From an uncultured Elusimicrobia bacterium (GTDB lineage: Bacteria > Elusimicrobiota > Elusimicrobia > JACQPE01), in contig CAYHKQ010000001.1 of assembly GCA_964357255.1 (NCBI GenBank), forward strand, positions 5,018 to 69,017: a stretch of 64,000 nucleotides of DNA. The letters are read 5' to 3'. Below the pieces are notes generated by a model. It did no database searches. It was not told where the DNA came from and was given only the letters and a program-made list of their open reading frames with translations. A program made the translations under genes and the position numbers. Positions 4,532-56,907 of the stretch are shown piece by piece. Position 1 is the first letter of the stretch. The number at the start of each line of letters is the position of its first letter.

Positions 4532-5775
4532 TGGAAAAACAGCGGTTAAGCGGTTTAGCGGTTAAGCGGTTTAGTGTTTTAAGGAGCATCTTTTATTTAC
4601 TTACCTGCTTAAGCGCTCAACTGCTCAATCGCTATCCCCTGTCGGCGCAAGAGAAAATTTTTATGCCTTATTACCGGTTTAATTTTGGAGAGGGCGTAGC
4701 GCTTCCTTCCAAAGGCGACTTTTTCGCGAGCCACACGGTCGGCTCTCAGGTGGGCGGGCTCTTAAATGCCACAGACTGGCTTCATTTCTTTGGGTTATAT
4801 GATTTGACGTATCAGGGGCCGGGTTTGATTCGGTCCGAGGGCGAACTTTTTACTCAGCGTTCCATGCGGCACTCCTTTTTAATCGAGCCCTCTTTTACTA
4901 TCGCCAATGCAGGCAAATTGAGGCTTAAAGTTTTTACCATTAAGGAATTCAGGCGAAGCGGCACTAATGAAACTTGGGGCAAGGGACTTTATGATTACGC
5001 GGCCCAGGGCGGTTCCGTTGGTTTTGAGCGCGAATTTTTTGGCTTTCGTTTTTTCCCGGCCATCCGGATCATGCAGATGAAATTTCCCAATTACACTGAT
5101 CTTTTGCGGGAATTCCAAGAATCAGGCTTGAGCGCCGAACTTGCGGGCGGCTTAATGGATCAGAATGTGATGGCTTATTCACTTAATATTTCGAGAAAGC
5201 CGTTCAATGTGGGAGTGAGCTTGAGTTCACAAAAATATAAGAAAGAAAAAGTTGTCGGCCAGGGTGGCGTTTATACCAGCGACGCGCAGAAGGACAGCGT
5301 GACCGAGATCACGGCTGATTTTGATGTGAGCCTGTGGCGTTTCAGCCTGGTGCCGGAGGGCGCCTATCGGATGAAGCGTTCGAATCAGAATTATTTGCGT
5401 TTCGCTTATTTCGGAGACCCAAACCCGACATTTGTCCCCAAAAACTATGATTACAATGAGATGAGCGTCGGGGGTAAACTTTATTTGAAAATGACGGAAA
5501 AGAAAGCGATTTTTGGCTCGATAGATTTAAATAACAGGGTCTATCCTAACCGCCCCCCTCGCAATGCCAGCGGCGTTTATGCCGCCGCAGGCGAGATGCA
5601 GAACACAACCTGGGGAGCCTGGGGCGGAGGAATTCAGTGGAAAGTGTCTGATTACTCCACCTGGAATTTGGCCTATCATATGGTTTACAGCAAATCCAAC
5701 ATGAAGTACGATCGTTTTATCCCTTACAACTACACAGGCAACGTCGTCGGCCTGTACCTGAGTGTCTCCCCGTAA
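4531..5775 (+). CDS. Predicted outer-membrane protein with the conserved RLSGLAVKR...CLSAQ...LNR leader (paralog family)
   Basis: 414 aa, beta-rich, Tyr/Gly-rich. N-terminus MEKQRLSGLAVKRFSVLRSIFYLLTCLSAQLLNR is shared with the ORFs at 25510-26613 and 26615-27622. Confidence 0.5.
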   Translation: MEKQRLSGLAVKRFSVLRSIFYLLTCLSAQLLNRYPLSAQEKIFMPYYRFNFGEGVALPSKGDFFASHTVGSQVGGLLNATDWLHFFGLYDLTYQGPGLIRSEGELFTQRSMRHSFLIEPSFTIANAGKLRLKVFTIKEFRRSGTNETWGKGLYDYAAQGGSVGFEREFFGFRFFPAIRIMQMKFPNYTDLLREFQESGLSAELAGGLMDQNVMAYSLNISRKPFNVGVSLSSQKYKKEKVVGQGGVYTSDAQKDSVTEITADFDVSLWRFSLVPEGAYRMKRSNQNYLRFAYFGDPNPTFVPKNYDYNEMSVGGKLYLKMTEKKAIFGSIDLNNRVYPNRPPRNASGVYAAAGEMQNTTWGAWGGGIQWKVSDYSTWNLAYHMVYSKSNMKYDRFIPYNYTGNVVGLYLSVSP

Positions 5776-5817: not shown

Positions 5818-7218
5818 TTACTCAAACGCCAGGGTTACGATGGCTTGGACGCCGTTGATGGGACGGGGTGTTTCCCCTGTAATTTCATAAGCTTTGCCCG
5901 GCGTGAAACGATAGAGGCCGACAGTGGCCTTGAACCGTTCGGCAAAATTTGTGGAAATGTCAAACGACCATTCACCGCCGAGTTCTTTTGAAATTCCTCC
6001 GGACCCCTCGGTGGCGCGCAATTCATGGCGAGACACGCCGAGGCGCAACGGGACATTGAGTAGATAATAAGGCTTGGATTTGACGCCAAAACCGAAGGTT
6101 GTCACGCCGGAGAGGCCTGCTGGAAGGCCGTTCCAGGTTCCGGTGGAGGCTAACGCGTCAAAGGTCGTGGCGCCCAAGGCTTTCCCCCATCCGGTCCGGC
6201 GCGCGCCATCAAAGCGCGTGGCAAGCGGCGCGAAATAAGCCTCGTCAACCTCCGTGTTTTTTTTATCGCCGCTACCCAAGGCATAGAGAAGATTCCACTC
6301 CAAAGGTCCCAGGAAATCCATTTTAGGCAACCTCCCCCGCCACAATCCTTCAAAGACGTACGCCACAGTTCTGGATTTGACTTTTTGGACAGGATCGGTC
6401 AAGCCGGAAAAATAACGCCCCTGGGACAAGACGAATTCTGAATGGAAGGCGAAATTGGCCTTCTCTTGATCATAATGGAGGTTGAAGGAGTTTCGGGTTG
6501 CCTTGCCTGAAACCGGCCCGCCTTCTAAGACGCGGGGCGTTTTGTCGGCCTCAGTGAGCATTGCGAGCGTCCATCGGCCCGTGCGTTCAAAGCCGACAGC
6601 GAGCCAGTTGAATATAATTCTGTCCGATCCAAAGCCGCTGGTTTCGGTGTTGCCGTTCATATATTCAAGGGATAGCGGCCCCAAGCCGCTGATTTTGATT
6701 TGAAAGCCGAAAACCCCGATGCCGTTATCGTCCAAAAGAAGGCTGTCATTCCTGCCTATGGGAATGGTGCCGGCCTTAAAGAACAACGGATGACTGCCAA
6801 GGGTTCCTTCATGAGCCAAATAGGCTTGGGAGACAAAGACCCCGGGGCCGGGCTTGGGATAGCGGGTTGAGGTGTTAGCCAGGGGAGGCGGGAGCTCTTT
6901 TACTCCGGCCAGAGAAATATGCTCCATGCGAAAGTTGAAGATCCAGGGGTCTTCCTTGATTTTGATGTTTACGCTTGCCCGCTGGGCGAAGAAGGAGTAA
7001 TCGGCGCGGCGCGGAGAGGTCGAGATTTCGCTAAGCGCGTAATACGCCGGCTGGGCTGTGACAGAGAGGTCTATCATAGAGATCGCGTTTTCCGCCGCTT
7101 GCGGCAACTGGGCGACTTGAGCCTTAAGCTGGGAGGTCAATAAGGTCAATAAGGTCAATAAGGTGAGCGATCTTTTGTCATTGCGAGCGAAGAGAAACAA
7201 TCTCATAGAGGAATTCAT
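5818..7218 (-). CDS. Predicted outer-membrane porin-like protein (signal peptide, beta-barrel character)
   Basis: 466 aa. Leader contains LTLLTLLTLLT encoded by a tandem 9-bp DNA repeat. Beta-strand-rich body. No recognisable enzyme motifs. Confidence 0.45.
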   Translation of the reverse strand: MNSSMRLFLFARNDKRSLTLLTLLTLLTSQLKAQVAQLPQAAENAISMIDLSVTAQPAYYALSEISTSPRRADYSFFAQRASVNIKIKEDPWIFNFRMEHISLAGVKELPPPLANTSTRYPKPGPGVFVSQAYLAHEGTLGSHPLFFKAGTIPIGRNDSLLLDDNGIGVFGFQIKISGLGPLSLEYMNGNTETSGFGSDRIIFNWLAVGFERTGRWTLAMLTEADKTPRVLEGGPVSGKATRNSFNLHYDQEKANFAFHSEFVLSQGRYFSGLTDPVQKVKSRTVAYVFEGLWRGRLPKMDFLGPLEWNLLYALGSGDKKNTEVDEAYFAPLATRFDGARRTGWGKALGATTFDALASTGTWNGLPAGLSGVTTFGFGVKSKPYYLLNVPLRLGVSRHELRATEGSGGISKELGGEWSFDISTNFAERFKATVGLYRFTPGKAYEITGETPRPINGVQAIVTLAFE

Positions 7219-20281: not shown

Positions 20282-21054
20282 TGGAGTATTCAAGCACGGA
20301 GATGATCGCTTGCCTTGCCGCGCGTCTGATGGCGGGTCAGTCCACGGCCTTTATTGGCACTGGGATTCCTTTGCTGGGGGCGGCTTTGGCTAAGAAACTT
20401 TATGCCCCCGATCTGATTCCTGTTTTTGAATTTGGCGGCATCGGCTCGACTCTTGAAGAATTGCCTTTGGGCGTGGGCGAAGCGCGAACCTTTCGCCGCG
20501 CCTTGGCCGCGGCCGGAATTTGCGATGTCATGGAAACGGCTCAGCGGGGCCTGATTTCCATTGGCTTGCTCGGCGGCGCGCAGATTGACGTTTATGGAAA
20601 CTTAAACACTACGGTCATCGGCAGTCACGACCGTCCTAAGGTCCGCCTGCCCGGCTCCGGCGGGGGCAATGACGTGGGGTCGCTGTGTTGGCGCACGGTC
20701 ATTTTGATGAAACAGGATAAAAAACGTTTCGTCAAGAAGCTCGATTTTTTGACGACGCCGGGCTATCTTCGCGGGGGCCGCTCCCGCGAAAAAGCCGGGT
20801 TGGCCGTTGGCACGGGGCCTTATCGAGTGGTCACGGACCTGGGCCTATTTGACTTTGAGCCGGCGTCGCGGCGGATGCGGCTGATTGCTCTAAATCCGGG
20901 CGTTGGGCTAAGCGAGGCAAAGGCCGCTTCTGAGTTTTCTTTTTTAACAGCTAAAACGATTATTAAAAATGAACCCCCCACAGAAGTTGAGTTAAAACTT
21001 TTGCGCGAAGAGCTTGACCGGGAAAAGATTTTTCGTAAGACTTTAGCGGTCTGA
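20278..21054 (+). CDS. CoA-transferase subunit B
   Basis: Beta-subunit-like Gly-rich segment LPGSGGGNDVGSL; translationally coupled to subunit A. Confidence 0.75.
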   Translation: MMEYSSTEMIACLAARLMAGQSTAFIGTGIPLLGAALAKKLYAPDLIPVFEFGGIGSTLEELPLGVGEARTFRRALAAAGICDVMETAQRGLISIGLLGGAQIDVYGNLNTTVIGSHDRPKVRLPGSGGGNDVGSLCWRTVILMKQDKKRFVKKLDFLTTPGYLRGGRSREKAGLAVGTGPYRVVTDLGLFDFEPASRRMRLIALNPGVGLSEAKAASEFSFLTAKTIIKNEPPTEVELKLLREELDREKIFRKTLAV

Positions 21055-21061
21055 AGTTTCC

Positions 21062-21135
21062 CGCTCATCCTGAGCCTGTCGAAGGATGGGCGTTCCCGCA
21101 GTCTTGGCTCATGGTTCGACAGGCTCACCATGAGC
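21062..21135. repeat. Long imperfect palindrome (21/23-bp arms, ~30-nt loop) downstream of the CoA-transferase genes
   Basis: ccgctcatcctgagcctgtcgaa ... ttcgacaggctcaccatgagcgg. Confidence 0.5.
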
Positions 21136-21250
21136 GGCTATTTTGACTACTTCAATCCGCTAAAGTATTACGATTTTTCTTCAGTAGGACTGCGCTTCAA
21201 GACTTTGGTCCCATTGAAAATATTGGGTTTTCGGGCTAAACTTTGTAGAG

Positions 21251-37366: not shown

Positions 37367-37518
37367 GTAACTATTCAGGTGCGGCGCTCCCCTTGCTGTC
37401 ATTCCCGCGAAAGCGGGCCGTTCGCAGGGCTCGCGGCACCTTGGGGCGCCGGAGGCGCTGATCGGGAATCCAGGCCCCGACCCCCGCCTTCGCGGGGGTG
37501 ACGGACCTGAACAGTTAC
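37367..37518 (+). mobile_element. MITE-like repeat, copy A (152 bp)
   Basis: TIRs gtaactattcagg / cctgaacagttac (12/13 inverted). 8-bp flanking direct repeats cttactta / cttgctta. Internal perfect hairpins cccgc-GAAA-gcggg and cccccgc-CTTC-gcggggg. About 95% identical to copy C. Confidence 0.7.
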
Positions 37519-41128: not shown

Positions 41129-41356
41129 GTAACTACTCAGGTTCCTCTTCCCCGTCATTCCGGCGAAAGCCGGCCGTTCGCAGAGCTCGCGGCACCTTGG
41201 GGCGCCTGAGGCGCTGATCGGGAATCCAGGATTTCATTCTGCAAATCAAGAACTGGATACCGGCTTTCGTCCCGTCAGGAGACGGGACAGTCCCCTCAAT
41301 TTTAATAGAGGGTTGGGACGCCGGTATGACGAATCCAAAAAAACCTGGGTAGTTAC
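41129..41356 (+). mobile_element. MITE-like repeat, copy B (228-bp variant)
   Basis: TIRs gtaactactcagg / cctgggtagttac. Perfect 8-bp TSD ttattttt on both sides. First ~105 bp homologous to copies A and C, then a different module with the hairpin gtcccgtc-AGGA-gacgggac. Confidence 0.7.
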
Positions 41357-51478: not shown

Positions 51479-51630
51479 GCAACTATTCAGGCGCGGCGCT
51501 CCCCTTGCCGTCATTCCCGCGAAAGCGGGCCGTTCGCAGGGCTCGCGGCACCTTGGGGCGCCGGAGGCGCTGATCGGGAATCCAGGCCCAGACCCCCGCC
51601 TTCGCGGGGGCGACGAACCTGAGCAGTTAC
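51479..51630 (+). mobile_element. MITE-like repeat, copy C (152 bp)
   Basis: gcaactattcagg ... cctgagcagttac. Direct repeat atatttttaag abuts both ends. Same two hairpins as copy A. Ends 22 bp upstream of the aspA-like start codon. Confidence 0.7.
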
Positions 51631-53055: not shown

Positions 53056-53913
53056 ATGGAACATCCATCGGTCATCGGCAGGGTTCGCTCGGCGCCTGCC
53101 CAGCTGTACTACAACAACCTGAAATTTTTTGGTTCCTATGTCACAATACCGGTTAGCGCCGGGGTTTTGGCCGACCTGGTGCTTCGAGGCCGTATTATGG
53201 CCGGTCCGGTGGCCGCTGGTGATTTGACCCGTTTGCTTCAGGAAGGATGCGAAGAACTGGCTGATTTTGGAATTTTTATTAATCCGTACAAGGCTTACGC
53301 CGAACTGCCGGATGAGTCCGCGCAGGCGGCCATCAATCATGCCCCTTATGTGATGCTGACCCGCCGTCCTATTGAAGAGCACGGGCGGCTTAAAGTCGGC
53401 ATCTCTGAAGAAATCTTGAGCTTGGCGCCCGAGGCCGCGGTGTTGGCTAAACTGCTGTTGTCGTTTTATTGGGAGATGGACCACGAAATTAGCTCCGAGC
53501 TTAGCCTGGAGGATGATGTTTGGGTGTGCCAGGGCGGGCCGTATCTTGGCTCGCGGTCCAGGCAGTTTTTTGGATTTTCCTACGCCTACGATTTGGCGTG
53601 GGAATGGTATCGTTGGAAACGCGCCCCCTTTTGTCTTTACCGTTGGGTTTGCCAGCCGGGTTTAGAGCGTGATCAAAAAGATGAATTGATCAGCGTGATC
53701 CGGCGCACCTTGGAGCTGAATTTGCGTAACTTGAGCCAAATGGCGGCTCAAGAGGCGTCTTTAAAGGGTCTCGAACGCGGTGAAGTCCTGGACTATTTGC
53801 AATGCTTCGGGTTTCGCCTGGATCTCTGGAGAGAGTCCGCGCAAAATGCGCTCTGCAATTTAGTGTCCATGCTCAAAGAGTCGGAGATTTTTTCTCTGAG
53901 CCCCAGAGCCTAG
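53056..53913 (+). CDS. MqnA/MqnD-family (periplasmic-binding-protein-like) protein, possible chorismate dehydratase
   Basis: IGRVRSAPAQLYYNNL...LVLRGRIMAGPVAAGDL parallels the MqnA pattern IGxIxxLNxxPLYxGL...LxxGxLDxGPV. Confidence 0.4.
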   Translation: MEHPSVIGRVRSAPAQLYYNNLKFFGSYVTIPVSAGVLADLVLRGRIMAGPVAAGDLTRLLQEGCEELADFGIFINPYKAYAELPDESAQAAINHAPYVMLTRRPIEEHGRLKVGISEEILSLAPEAAVLAKLLLSFYWEMDHEISSELSLEDDVWVCQGGPYLGSRSRQFFGFSYAYDLAWEWYRWKRAPFCLYRWVCQPGLERDQKDELISVIRRTLELNLRNLSQMAAQEASLKGLERGEVLDYLQCFGFRLDLWRESAQNALCNLVSMLKESEIFSLSPRA

Positions 53914-53980
53914 CGTGAGTTTACTGCGGTTGCGTAATTCCGGGGACACCCCACTTAATTCATATGTTCTAAAATCCTCC

Positions 53981-54090
53981 ATGGCCCGCATTGCCAGAAT
54001 CGTTGCTCCGCATATCCCCCACCATGTCACGCAAAGAGGAAACCGAAGGCAGAATACTTTCTTTTGCGACGATGATTACCAACTGCGTTT
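53981..54090 (+). pseudogene. Truncated RAYT/IS200-like (HUH Y1) transposase, N-terminal ~37 codons only
   Basis: MARIARIVAPHIPHHVTQRGNRRQNTFFCDDDYQ matches the RAYT/TnpA-IS200 N-terminus (G..YHVTxRGNRRQxIF.DDxD). The frame then runs into tandem repeats. Confidence 0.55.
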
Positions 54091-54094
54091 TTCG

Positions 54095-54215
54095 GTCCAA
54101 AGTGGCCACCCTTTTCGGCGGCATGACGGCCACCTATTTCGGAACATGACGGCCACCCTTTTCGGCCGGAAGACGGCCACTTTCTAGATCCTTCCGAAAG
54201 GGTGGCCATCATGCC
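54095..54215. repeat. Tandem ~23-bp iterons (4 direct plus 1 inverted copy), putative IS21-family multiple terminal repeats
   Basis: gtggccacccttttcggcgg / gacggccacctatttcggaa / gacggccacccttttcggcc / gacggccactttctagatcc, then inverted ccgaaagggtggccatcatg. Located 85-200 bp upstream of the istA start. Confidence 0.6.
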
Positions 54216-54300
54216 CGAAACACCCCCGCAGCGAACGGCGTTGGTTTAACCACAATTCGCCGTAGAATCCTTGCAATGTTTCCAGCATCAAGGAGGTTCT

Positions 54301-54960
54301 ATGGCACAAGAGAGGTTAACCATGCGCACAACAAAGGAGGTTTGCAGGCTTAAGTTTGCCTGCTACCTGAGCAACCGCCAAATTGCCAAGAGTCTTGGCA
54401 TTGGCCGTACAACAGTCGCGGATTATCTGGGGCGCGCTCAAGCCGCGGGCCTGGCGGATTGGCCGGCGATTGAAACCATTGGTGAAGAGGAACTCGAACA
54501 AAAACTCTTTTCTCTGCCACTGGACAACCCATCGGCCTCATCAAAGCCCCTGCCCGATTACGCCAGGGTCCATGAGGAGCTTCGCAATTCCCATGTTACC
54601 CTGACGCTTCTGTGGCAAGAGCACAAGGAGCAGCATCCCGATAGCCACGGCTACACCCAGTTCGCTCATTACTACAGCGAGTACAAGAAAAAGCTGGGCC
54701 TGGTGATGCGCCAAGAGCATAAGGCCGGGGAGAAAGTCTTCGTGGATTACTGTGATGGCCTCGGGATCATTGATCCCGATACAGGAGAGATTGTCCCAAC
54801 CCAGCTCTTTGTGGGAGTCTGGGGAGCGTCGAACTACACCTACGCCGAGGCCTCCCGAAGCCAGGACCTGGCCTGCTGGACCATGAGCCATGTGCGGGCC
54901 TTTGAATACTTCAACCGCGTTCCGGTAAGCTTGCAACGTCCCAACCTCCGGAAGCCATAA
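54301..54960 (+). mobile_element. istA: IS21-family transposase IstA, N-terminal fragment (truncated; no istB follows)
   Basis: AAGGAGG SD; HTH RQIAKSLGIGRTTVADYL; IS21 IstA-like N-terminal body ending prematurely at ~220 aa. Confidence 0.65.
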
Positions 54961-55006
54961 TTATATATGGCTATTTTGCCATATTCCTGGTATACTAATC
55001 TTAGTC

Positions 55007-55291
55007 ATGTTGCATTTTGAGTGGGACAGCAGGAAGGATCGGAAAAATCAACTAAAACACGGGGTATCCTTCAAGACTGCCCAGTACGCATTCTCCGATC
55101 CCGAACGCGTCATCGCCGAAGACTTGGAGCATAGCGAGAAAGAGAAACGTTTCTATTGTTTCGGCCGAGTTGAGGAAGAAATATTGACCGTTCGTTTCAC
55201 GTTTAGAAAAGAGCGGATTCGGATTTTTGGAGCTGGATACTGGAGAAAAGGAAGGGTTGTTTATGAAAAAGAAAATAAAATACACGGATGA
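55007..55291 (+). CDS. brnT: BrnT toxin (RelE-fold ribonuclease)
   Basis: MLHFEWDSRKDRKNQLKHGVSFKTAQYAFSDP...RFYCFGRVEEEILTVRFTFRKERIRIFGAGYWRKG is the BrnT/DUF497 family signature. Confidence 0.75.
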   Translation: MLHFEWDSRKDRKNQLKHGVSFKTAQYAFSDPERVIAEDLEHSEKEKRFYCFGRVEEEILTVRFTFRKERIRIFGAGYWRKGRVVYEKENKIHG

Positions 55292-55499
55292 GCCGCTCGG
55301 AAAACTTCGGATAATCAAGGATTTTTTGCCTCCTCCGGAAGAGCTGGCTTTCAAAGAGAAGGGCGTTAAGGTGACGATGACGCTCAGCAAATCGAGCGTC
55401 GAATTCTTCAAAAAGGCCGCTGAAAAGTACCACGCTCCATATCAGCAGATGCTTCGCAAATTGATCGATGCCTACACGGCTCACCATTTCTTGCCCTAA
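55263..55499 (+). CDS. brnA: BrnA antitoxin
   Basis: MKKKIKYTDEPLGKLRIIKDFLPPPEELAFKEKGVKVTMTLSKSSVEFFKKAAEKYHAPYQQMLRKLIDAY is the BrnA family pattern. Overlaps brnT by 29 nt. Confidence 0.75.
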   Translation: MKKKIKYTDEPLGKLRIIKDFLPPPEELAFKEKGVKVTMTLSKSSVEFFKKAAEKYHAPYQQMLRKLIDAYTAHHFLP

Positions 55500-55863
55500 T
55501 GCGAATTTAGAATAAAAGTAAAAGGAGACTTGACCCTCAAACAGGAATTCCGGGGACACCCCGCTTAATGCAGGAACCGCTACAAAAAAAAGTTTCCCGT
55601 AGCCTACGATCAATACGCCAAGCTCCTGGAAGAAAAGCAAGCGCAGGAGTCTGCCTTGGCCCAGCTCACGCAGGAATACCTATTGTTAAAAAAAAGAGTG
55701 AGTTAGTGAATTCCGGGGGAATTCCGGAATTTTAAAGCTATTGCGGGAGAATAAAAAAACCGAAGTTTGTCTATACGGCTTGTAGCGCAGAAAAAAGCTG
55801 ACTGTTCGAGGGAAAAATTAGGTTTTAGGGCCGCGTCACGCCCCCAACCGCAGTAAACTCACG

Positions 55864-56907
55864 CTAGGGCACGAGCACGATTTTTCCAAAGAATTGGCGC
55901 GAGAGCATTTTTTCCTGGGCTCCCCGCGCGTCCTTGAGTCCCCAGACGGAATCAATCACGGGACAGAGTTTTTTTTCTTCCACCAGTTGGGTAATTTTTT
56001 GAAACTCGGCCAAGGTTCCCATGATTGATCCCTGGAGCCGGATTTCGCGGGTGAAAAAATATCGAAGATCAATCGGAGCTTCTGGGCCGGCGGTGGCGCC
56101 GCAGGTGACGATGATCCCCCCTTTTTTAACCGATTTAATGGAATTCGCCATCGTTGCCGGGCCCACGTGTTCAAAAACAATGTCTACGCCCCTGCTATCC
56201 GTGGCCACAAGCGCCTCGCGGTAAAACGGGGTTGAGCCGTCGGGCTTGGAAAGGATGGTAATATCGGCGCCCAGGGCCCTGGCCTTGTCTAGTTTGTCCT
56301 CGTTGCCGGCCACCGCCAAGATTGGCTTGGCGCCTGCGAGTTTGGCGATTTGGATGGCGGCAACGCCGATTCCGCTGGCGGCTCCAAGAATTAAAACGCT
56401 GTTGCCTGCCGCAAGGTTCCCCTGGGTCATGAGCATGTGCCAAGCGGTAAGGAATGTCAGCGGGTAGGCCGCCGCTTCCTCAAAGCTGATGTTTTTTGGT
56501 TTGGCCGCTAATTGTCGGGCTTTGACCTTGACAAACTCGGCCAGACCTCCCGGAACATGCTCGCCTAAGATGCCGTAGGCGACGCAAAGATTGTCCCTGC
56601 CCTCCAGGCAGAAGGGGCACTTAAAGCAGGAGATTCCCGGCGAAATTACCACGGCCTCTCCGGCGATCCATCCCTTGACCCCGGAGCCGAGCCGGGCAAT
56701 TTCGCCGCTCGCGTCGCAACCTGAAATGTGGGGCAGGGGAACTTTTAAGCCCGGCAATCCTTGGCGCACCCAGATGTCCAGGCGGTTAAGCGCCGTTGCT
56801 CGCACGCGGACCAGGGCCTCGTCTTGGGCTAAGACCGGATCGGGAAAATTTTCAACATATTCGAGTTTTTCAGGCCCGCCGTGTTCGCGGAAGATGACGG
56901 CTTTCAT
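55864..56907 (-). CDS. Zn-dependent alcohol dehydrogenase / quinone oxidoreductase (MDR family)
   Basis: GAASGIGVAAIQIAKLAGAKP Rossmann fold; the MDR N-domain with the CxxC..C structural-Zn-like cluster CFKCPFCLEGRDNLC. Confidence 0.75.
   Translation of the reverse strand: MKAVIFREHGGPEKLEYVENFPDPVLAQDEALVRVRATALNRLDIWVRQGLPGLKVPLPHISGCDASGEIARLGSGVKGWIAGEAVVISPGISCFKCPFCLEGRDNLCVAYGILGEHVPGGLAEFVKVKARQLAAKPKNISFEEAAAYPLTFLTAWHMLMTQGNLAAGNSVLILGAASGIGVAAIQIAKLAGAKPILAVAGNEDKLDKARALGADITILSKPDGSTPFYREALVATDSRGVDIVFEHVGPATMANSIKSVKKGGIIVTCGATAGPEAPIDLRYFFTREIRLQGSIMGTLAEFQKITQLVEEKKLCPVIDSVWGLKDARGAQEKMLSRQFFGKIVLVP

Follow-up and report, generated by a model that had tools for sequence, protein, structure and literature searches.

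How does a perfect inverted repeat come to lie across the ends of two convergent genes, with 1.9 kb of mobile-element debris between its arms? The question is raised by a 64,000-nt stretch of DNA from an uncultured Elusimicrobia bacterium (GCA_964357255.1, contig CAYHKQ010000001.1, forward-strand positions 5,018 to 69,017), called the window here. The two genes, one MqnA/MqnD-like and the other encoding a zinc-type medium-chain dehydrogenase/reductase (ADH), enclose the remnant of a probable TIRYT (TIRtron) element, a truncated IS21-family element, and a brnT/brnA toxin-antitoxin pair. We find that this gap is a hotspot for insertions within the Elusimicrobiota lineage concerned. The best reading of the repeat, to which we give a probability of about 0.55, is that its arms are the halves of one former intergenic palindrome.

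An inverted repeat at two gene ends

A repeat search of the window placed the left arm, CCTAGCGTGAGTTTACTGCGGTTG, at 53909 to 53932 and the right arm at 55845 to 55868. The arms are 24 nt long and 100% complementary, with 1912 nt between them. The inverted repeat that the original prediction had described is therefore perfect and real, but it is 24 nt long and not 22, with an extra CC/GG on the outside. Each copy includes the stop codon of a convergent gene, as had been predicted: the TAG at 53911 to 53913 ends the MqnA-like gene, and the CTA at 55864 to 55866 is the stop of the minus-strand ADH gene. The left arm also takes in the final two bases of the last MqnA-like codon, and the right arm takes in the same part of the ADH gene. 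In a variant contig, L021, position 55869 is a C, so that the last ADH codon is GCC, as in the MqnA-like gene, and the repeat would reach 25 nt.

The locus was compared across assemblies of several Hainich H41 groundwater samples and Logan runs. Contigs cover the region at 99.9 to 100% identity (L001, 53023 to 55678; L003; L013, 54996 to 60300; L015/L018, 54842 to 58692; L019, 54835 to 56418). Each junction is spanned by at least two independent assemblies that agree, and the island is therefore not an assembly artefact.

The original prediction had held that a common genome-wide repeat would refute an origin from a single palindrome. The search for further arm copies in the same genome covered the 64-kb window, where only two are present with up to 3 mismatches allowed (0 in 100 shuffles). 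The exact 22-mer of the arm has no match in the GTDB representative genomes, which do not include the source genome. In a metagenome collection, the 20-mer core of the arm was found in two contigs only, both of this locus. Since this collection is incomplete and missed L013, which holds the right arm, the 20-mer search is weak evidence against a dispersed repeat.

These results bear on the possibility, which we regard as quite improbable, that the arms are the terminal inverted repeats of an unknown larger element that brought in the cargo together with new stops for both genes. The arms do coincide precisely with both outer boundaries of the foreign DNA, and CTAG is a stop codon read on either strand, both of which agree with such an element. 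However, no target-site duplication lies beside the arms (left ...CCCAGAG, right GCACGAG...), no transposase is associated with the arm ends, and no other arm copy occurs in the window, in the GTDB representatives, or in the metagenome set beyond this locus. The ADH stop is also at its native position when compared with five orthologues (GKIVLVP before the stop, versus GKIVIKV or GKIIVKV), and the MqnA C terminus is 3 to 4 residues longer in the window, as it is in the closest relative. Given the native ADH stop and the small MqnA difference, the arms do not replace truncated gene ends.

The same gap in relatives

Seven relatives have kept the gene order around this site: fumarase, MqnA-like, and then the convergent ADH, (DJ-1), DksA/TraR, and DUF6580 genes. 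The variable spot is the MqnA/ADH gap alone, which is a recurrent insertion site because synteny is kept and only the gap content varies. Among the seven relatives, one gap holds a hairpin only, one shows a gene overlap, and five carry cargo. The gap holds a peptidase S8 gene in L007 (76% identity), ParE-like and PemK toxin-antitoxin pairs with a TPR gene in L010 (59%), DUF922 and a small open reading frame (ORF) in L105 (51%), and a ParE-like pair in L108 (53%), while in L011/L012 (64%) the genes overlap by 4 nt. Toxin-antitoxin pairs occur in two of the five cargo-bearing gaps, three pairs in total.

The gap of L008 (57% identity) is 57 nt long and is nearly all one hairpin. Its 26-nt arms are 96% complementary, overlap the MqnA stop, and end 5 nt ahead of the ADH stop, and folding gave -36.5 and -41.2 kcal/mol, one value for each strand. 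Since L008 shows one, a hairpin that fills the gap is a natural state of this site. A split palindrome fits the window best because its arms abut native stops and L008 has an analogous hairpin, because foreign DNA begins 3 nt inside the left arm, and because there is neither a target duplication nor a second locus with the arm. L008 also has a second near-perfect hairpin (5934 to 5973; 18-nt arms, 94%) between the fumarase and MqnA genes, and long hairpins seem commoner in its genome than in the window.

Several observations weigh against this reading. The L008 gap has the architecture that the original prediction expected of an empty site, but its hairpin is unrelated in sequence to the window arms, which makes it an analogue and not an empty allele. 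None of the relatives yielded an empty site with this arm sequence, and no relative closer than L007 was found, which is without such a repeat. No other long perfect hairpin was found in the 64 kb, and the ancestral hairpin would thus be exceptional for this stretch. TIRtrons in other genomes showed no preference for palindromes in the outer flanks of 28 relatives, and no recognisable element end marks the right boundary of the insert. A bidirectional intrinsic terminator would consist of a GC-rich stem-loop between an upstream A-tract and a downstream T-tract. The hairpin rebuilt by joining the arms (-45.7 kcal/mol with a placeholder loop) has coding sequence directly at both sides and no adjacent T-run or U-tract, and a promoter/terminator scan of 53700 to 56100 gave no hits and no intrinsic terminator. 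The proposed role as a bidirectional terminator is unproven because the rebuilt stem has no U-tract, and to call it a terminator would be an inference. The split palindrome likewise stays an inference, because a same-sequence empty allele, another perfect long hairpin in the window, a U-tract, and an element end at the right boundary are all missing.

The main rival explanation is a secondary origin of the repeat. About 25 nt of one gene end, GCC-TAG included, would have been copied in inverted orientation onto the end of the other gene, by template switching or inverted duplication while the island was built or trimmed, and there would have been no ancestral hairpin. The lack of any other perfect long hairpin in the 64 kb speaks for this, as do the gene-end duplications at this site in L010 (56 nt) and L108 (an ADH-like remnant) and the fact that the arms are still perfect while the interior decayed through several events. 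We nevertheless consider a secondary origin unlikely: the duplications in the relatives are direct and not inverted, the copying must have preserved both reading frames and left both stops near their native positions, and L008 has a natural hairpin of this size at the same place.

The duplicated gene ends were also recorded for themselves. In L010, 56 nt of the ADH 3' end occur twice in direct orientation (2703 to 2758 and 6118 to 6173, 91% identity), and the two copies bracket a 3.4-kb island; in L108 an ADH-like remnant lies beside the MqnA stop (1290 to 1370). These leftover ADH 3' ends suggest insertion into, or recombination at, the 3' end of the ADH gene.

The MqnA/MqnD-like flanking gene on the left (53056 to 53913, plus strand) encodes 285 aa with a match to Pfam VitK2_biosynth (E 3.1e-10), and its product is 100% identical to the NCBI entry 'MqnA/MqnD/SBP family protein [Elusimicrobiota bacterium]'. 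The ADH gene on the right (55864 to 56907, minus strand) encodes 347 aa with the Pfam domains ADH_N, ADH_zinc_N, and ADH_zinc_N_2. All specific NCBIfam models scored under their cutoffs against this dehydrogenase, and the name quinone oxidoreductase that it had been given is plausible.

Nested remnants between the arms

Three nucleotides (CGT) separate the inner end of the left arm from the left terminal inverted repeat of a TIRYT element, AATTCCGGGGACACCCCACTTAATTCA (53936 to 53962, plus strand), which matches the consensus AATTCCGGGGACAGTATACTTAATT and has the GGGGWSAS motif. The core of this repeat, GGGGACAC, fits GGGGWSAS and lies 39 nt ahead of the ATG of a TIRYT-type Y1 (HUH) transposase gene. 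Of this gene, the N-terminal 34 codons and 2 nt are left (53981 to 54084, plus strand), where it is cut by the IS21 insertion. The remnant is 73 to 77% identical to PF01797 proteins, some of which are named RayT, and its identity to full-length relatives, which are about 220 aa long and have the HUH motif PNHVHL, reaches 85%. The comparison with PF01797 proteins (73 to 85% identity) covers the N-terminal 34 to 56 aa, the HUH and tyrosine motifs being deleted in the window. Pfam gives no score to the fragment, which is too short. The original prediction of a RAYT/IS200-like remnant was right about the N terminus of a Y1 transposase but not about its length, put at about 37 codons.

We surveyed 52 full-length relatives of this TIRtron from many phyla. 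The repeat lies in forward orientation upstream of the ATG in 41 of the 52, at a distance of 42 to 158 nt (mode 55), and in inverted orientation after the stop in 32, at 2 to 45 nt (mode 6); in 28, terminal repeats are present on both sides. The consensus across the relatives is the 25-nt sequence given above, with which the window's repeat agrees at 21 of 25 positions. In published TIRtrons (TIRYT elements), a Y1 gene lies between terminal repeats that share GGGGWSAS (PMC3733652; subclass 2.1 TnpA-Y1, Quentin et al. 2018, PMC6006769). The sequence first described as a 24-bp hairpin-containing repeat fits this arrangement, and it is therefore most probably a TIRYT terminal repeat. Its two copies are real, but each is 27 nt long, and the GGGG/CCCC mini-hairpin is not conserved among the relatives and folds no better than shuffles.

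The second copy of the repeat stands alone at 55546 to 55572 (plus strand). It is 93% identical to the left copy at 53936 to 53962 and points the same way, which is non-canonical for a right end, since that would be inverted. The proposal that the repeat forms IS200-like end hairpins was rejected. An inverted right terminal repeat is absent from the window, the sole other copy being the direct one, and tblastn against the whole window recovered no 3' part of the TIRYT gene. An inversion was considered as an explanation of the direct orientation; it predicts a reversed TIRYT 3' end to the right, where tblastn finds none.

In many TIRtrons, partial tandem copies of the outer 8 to 12 nt of the repeat lie directly outside the terminal repeats. 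They were seen in L031, L033, L040, L045, L059, L061, L065, L083, L094, and L104 (for example AATTCCGG-AATTCCGGGG-AATTCCGGGGACA) and may have been left behind by the cleavage and joining reactions. They can be compared with window positions 55707 to 55731 (TGAATTCCGGGGGAATTCCGGAATT), a possible degenerate fragment of the outer end of the terminal repeat, although the match is weak (p about 0.007 to 0.04 versus shuffles).

A further copy of the TIRYT 5' part, copy B, was found on L022, an 11.9-kb contig from the same samples. It is truncated, is 98% identical over 150 nt, and adjoins a permease stop, and its gene runs on unbroken past the position of 54084. The terminal repeat is the exact point at which homology between L022 and the window begins; to the left of the repeat lies a 28-aa IS3-type OrfA fragment, and the 24-nt arm is absent beside copy B. 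The arm therefore belongs to the site and not to the TIRtron. Among the 28 relatives with both terminal repeats, none has a further inverted repeat outside them. Copy B is part of another debris patch (L022:8690-10300, minus strand) and lies between the stop of the ZnuB-like permease gene and the N-terminal IS3-type OrfA fragment, near HicB-like, HTH_3, and Cas3-like genes.

Copy B also accounts for one discordant contig. L002 contains the MqnA gene, the left arm, the TIRYT start, and then 21 further codons that lead into the ZnuB-like permease gene. It was considered as an IS21-free haplotype and rejected as an assembly chimera formed through the identical stretch 53990 to 54084, because L022 places the same TIRYT 5' part beside the permease stop. 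The identity of this stretch in the two TIRYT copies also explains the contig ends at 54019 and 54044.

REPtron repeats are GTAG-tagged hairpins, many copies of which are dispersed over the genome. That the arms are cognate repetitive extragenic palindromes (REPs) around a RAYT gene, as in a REPtron, and belong to a genome-wide REP/REPIN family is largely refuted, and we give it hardly any credence. Inverted REPs typically flank RAYT genes (PMC3116915, PMC6006769), and a Y1 transposase remnant does lie directly inside the left arm. The cognate repeats of this Y1 clade, however, are the GGGGWSAS terminal repeats found upstream of the gene in most of the relatives, and copy B of the same gene has no 24-nt arm. 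The arm itself lacks a GTAG tag and is not self-complementary, and the 64 kb holds no third copy of it. Nor does the 27-nt repeat have a GTAG tag or a conserved hairpin, or any copies beyond the two in the 64 kb, and REPtron membership was rejected on these grounds.

The TIRYT gene is interrupted by the left end of an IS21-family element (54084 to 54220, plus strand), with a terminal TG, four direct repeats, and one inverted copy. The direct repeats start at 54090, 54113, 54137, and 54160 (spacing 23 to 24 nt), and the inverted copy lies at 54197 to 54220. The tip of the element, and hence the junction, is fixed at 54084/54085 by two independent breakpoints, copy B on L022 and the start of L021 at 54084. 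IS21 elements are known to have terminal direct repeats at 23-bp intervals that finish in CA and serve as binding sites for IstA (PMC10122671). The tandem 23-bp iterons of the original prediction are real as four direct units of about 23 nt, plus one inverted, at 54090 to 54220, but their identity is another: judged from the sequence, they are the left-end repeats to which the IS21 transposase binds.

The istA gene that follows (54301 to 54960, plus strand) is truncated, as had been predicted, and matches NCBIfam NF033546 (transpos_IS21) with an E value of 9.3e-38 over profile positions 2 to 179 of 294. It has a good ribosome-binding site and was called as a 219-aa gene in L001. Homology to IS21 transposases stops near 54927, and the final 11 codons or so are unrelated read-through. 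Owing to the truncation of the gene, IstA scores 130 bits, where the cutoff for the full length is 160. No istB follows, since the element is cut near 54927, and the loss of its right end leaves the target duplication unreadable.

L021 carries another IS21 variant at the same place (L021:1-751, equal to window 54084 to 54834), which is about 88% identical; beyond 54834 this contig is near-identical to the window, with three differences. Three of its 23-nt left-end repeats share a change of ACG to GTA (54126 to 54128, 54149 to 54151, and 54173 to 54175), so that the transposase-binding sites have changed together. The cause is either recombination between two IS21 variants or a mixing of copies by the assembler.

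To the right of istA lie the brnT toxin gene (55007 to 55291, plus strand; 94 aa) and the brnA antitoxin gene (55263 to 55499, plus strand; 78 aa). BrnT matches PF04365 with an E value of 4.7e-22 and 78.5 bits (cutoff, 34.5) over profile positions 1 to 75 of 77, and BrnA matches PF14384 with an E value of 4.5e-6 and 27.4 bits (cutoff, 26.1). This near-complete Pfam coverage agrees with the original description of the pair as intact-looking. The two ORFs are co-oriented, with the toxin gene first, overlap by 29 nt, and are identical across all contigs. The brnTA pair looks like the only functional part of the island and may make loss of the segment costly; its role as a stabilising cargo is speculation. 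Beyond the solo terminal repeat, a stretch of 272 nt (55573 to 55844) has no Pfam, NCBIfam, or Rfam match, and scans of it and of a small ORF at 55568 to 55735 with Pfam, NCBIfam, PADLOC, and Rfam gave nothing credible.

Under the split-palindrome reading, these remnants would have accumulated in a set order. The gap would at first have been about 45 nt long and made up of one long palindromic hairpin, with a stem of 24 to 25 bp that reached into the last codon and stop of both genes. A TIRtron would then have landed at or near the apex of this hairpin, as its adjacency to the left arm suggests, with its left repeat 3 nt past that arm. An IS21-family element entered codon 35 of the TIRYT gene. 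The IS21 element has lost its right part, and the TIRtron has lost the remainder of its transposase gene together with its right terminal repeat, probably through one or more deletions. Left beside the remnants were the brnT-brnA cassette, the solo terminal repeat, and the 272 nt with no family match. Today the half-stems would be 1.9 kb apart, and a local hairpin would no longer be possible.

A bolder extension is that long perfect palindromes between convergent genes of this lineage act as landing pads: extruded on single-stranded DNA, they would receive Y1 (TIRYT) insertions at the apex and would thereby be opened to cargo. We regard this as quite improbable. If true, it would explain the repeated gain of toxin-antitoxin pairs in the same mqnA/adh gap of different relatives.

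Other repeats, significance, and comparison with known systems

The window holds further repeats. A repeat family whose members span about 150 nt and contain internal palindromes (CGTCATTCCCGCGAAAGCGGG ... CCCGCCTTCGCGGGGG) is present in at least three copies (37369 to 37518, 41152 to 41230, and 51481 to 51630) that are 95 to 96% identical, one of them directly upstream of the fumarase gene, and looks like a miniature mobile element. A nested palindrome lies at 21033 to 21173; its outer arms measure 25 nt (88%), and its inner arms, which include CCGCTCATCCTGAGCCTGTCGAAGGATGGGC, measure 31 nt (84%). A Hainich contig, L020, follows the window from 53993 down to 50991, and its final 117 nt (L020:3004-3120) differ, which suggests a strain variant or a repeat boundary nearby.

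The result is mainly one of annotation and shows how insertions nested in one another, followed by deletions, produced the content of a short intergenic gap in an uncultured phylum. Two labels are corrected, from IS200-like ends to a TIRYT terminal repeat and from iterons to transposase-binding repeats of IS21. Of wider use are the conservation of the TIRtron GGGGWSAS repeat as a consensus of about 25 nt in many phyla, from 52 newly examined loci, and the recurrence of toxin-antitoxin modules in a single convergent-gene gap across a lineage. Neither of these alters current understanding.

Among known systems, the TIRYT remnant is closest to TIRtrons. It shares with them an N terminus that is 73 to 85% identical to HUH members of about 220 aa and a 25- to 27-nt repeat with the same core, at a near-canonical distance upstream of the ATG, and at least two copies are present in the community. 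It differs in that the window keeps 34 codons and no inverted right repeat, the second copy being direct and 1.6 kb away. IS200/IS605 elements lack terminal inverted repeats; both of their ends carry directly oriented subterminal hairpins, and their TnpA is short, at about 130 to 150 aa. Membership in that family was rejected, since the relatives are about 220 aa long with inverted terminal repeats and the mini-hairpin of the window is not conserved. The IS21 remnant resembles its family in the terminal TG, the left-end direct repeats 23 to 24 nt apart, and the N-terminal helix-turn-helix and start of the catalytic core of IstA, whereas the window copy is cut within istA and has no istB and no right end.

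The BrnT/BrnA type II toxin-antitoxin system was first described in Brucella abortus. The window pair is like it in having the toxin gene first, overlapping ORFs, and both Pfam domains covered almost end to end; its BrnA score is barely over the Pfam cutoff, and the system is predicted from the genes.

Insertion sequences in extragenic palindromes have been described before (Tobes and Pareja 2006, PMC1525189), as has the IS110-family element ISPpu9 in REPs (PMC12288879). The likeness lies in mobile DNA between palindrome halves just past convergent genes, with the half-stems as a flanking inverted repeat. Unlike those palindromes, however, the one proposed here is known from this locus alone and not as a dispersed REP, and neither TIRtrons nor IS21 elements are known to favour palindromes as targets.

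Conserved core genes can enclose chromosomal integration hotspots, which gather toxin-antitoxin and defence cargo. The mqnA/ADH gap differs from them in being very small (0 to 4 kb) and in having no integrase and no att-type repeat in the window, and in two relatives the ADH 3' end is directly duplicated instead. It resembles them in that the flanks are kept while the cargo varies and toxin-antitoxin modules recur: the window has BrnTA, and among the seven relatives two carry a ParE-like pair, one of them with a PemK pair as well. The TIRtron, the IS21-family element, and the BrnTA pair are all of known kinds, as is the insertion of mobile DNA into an extragenic palindrome (compare PMC1525189), and the gap is an ordinary insertion hotspot.

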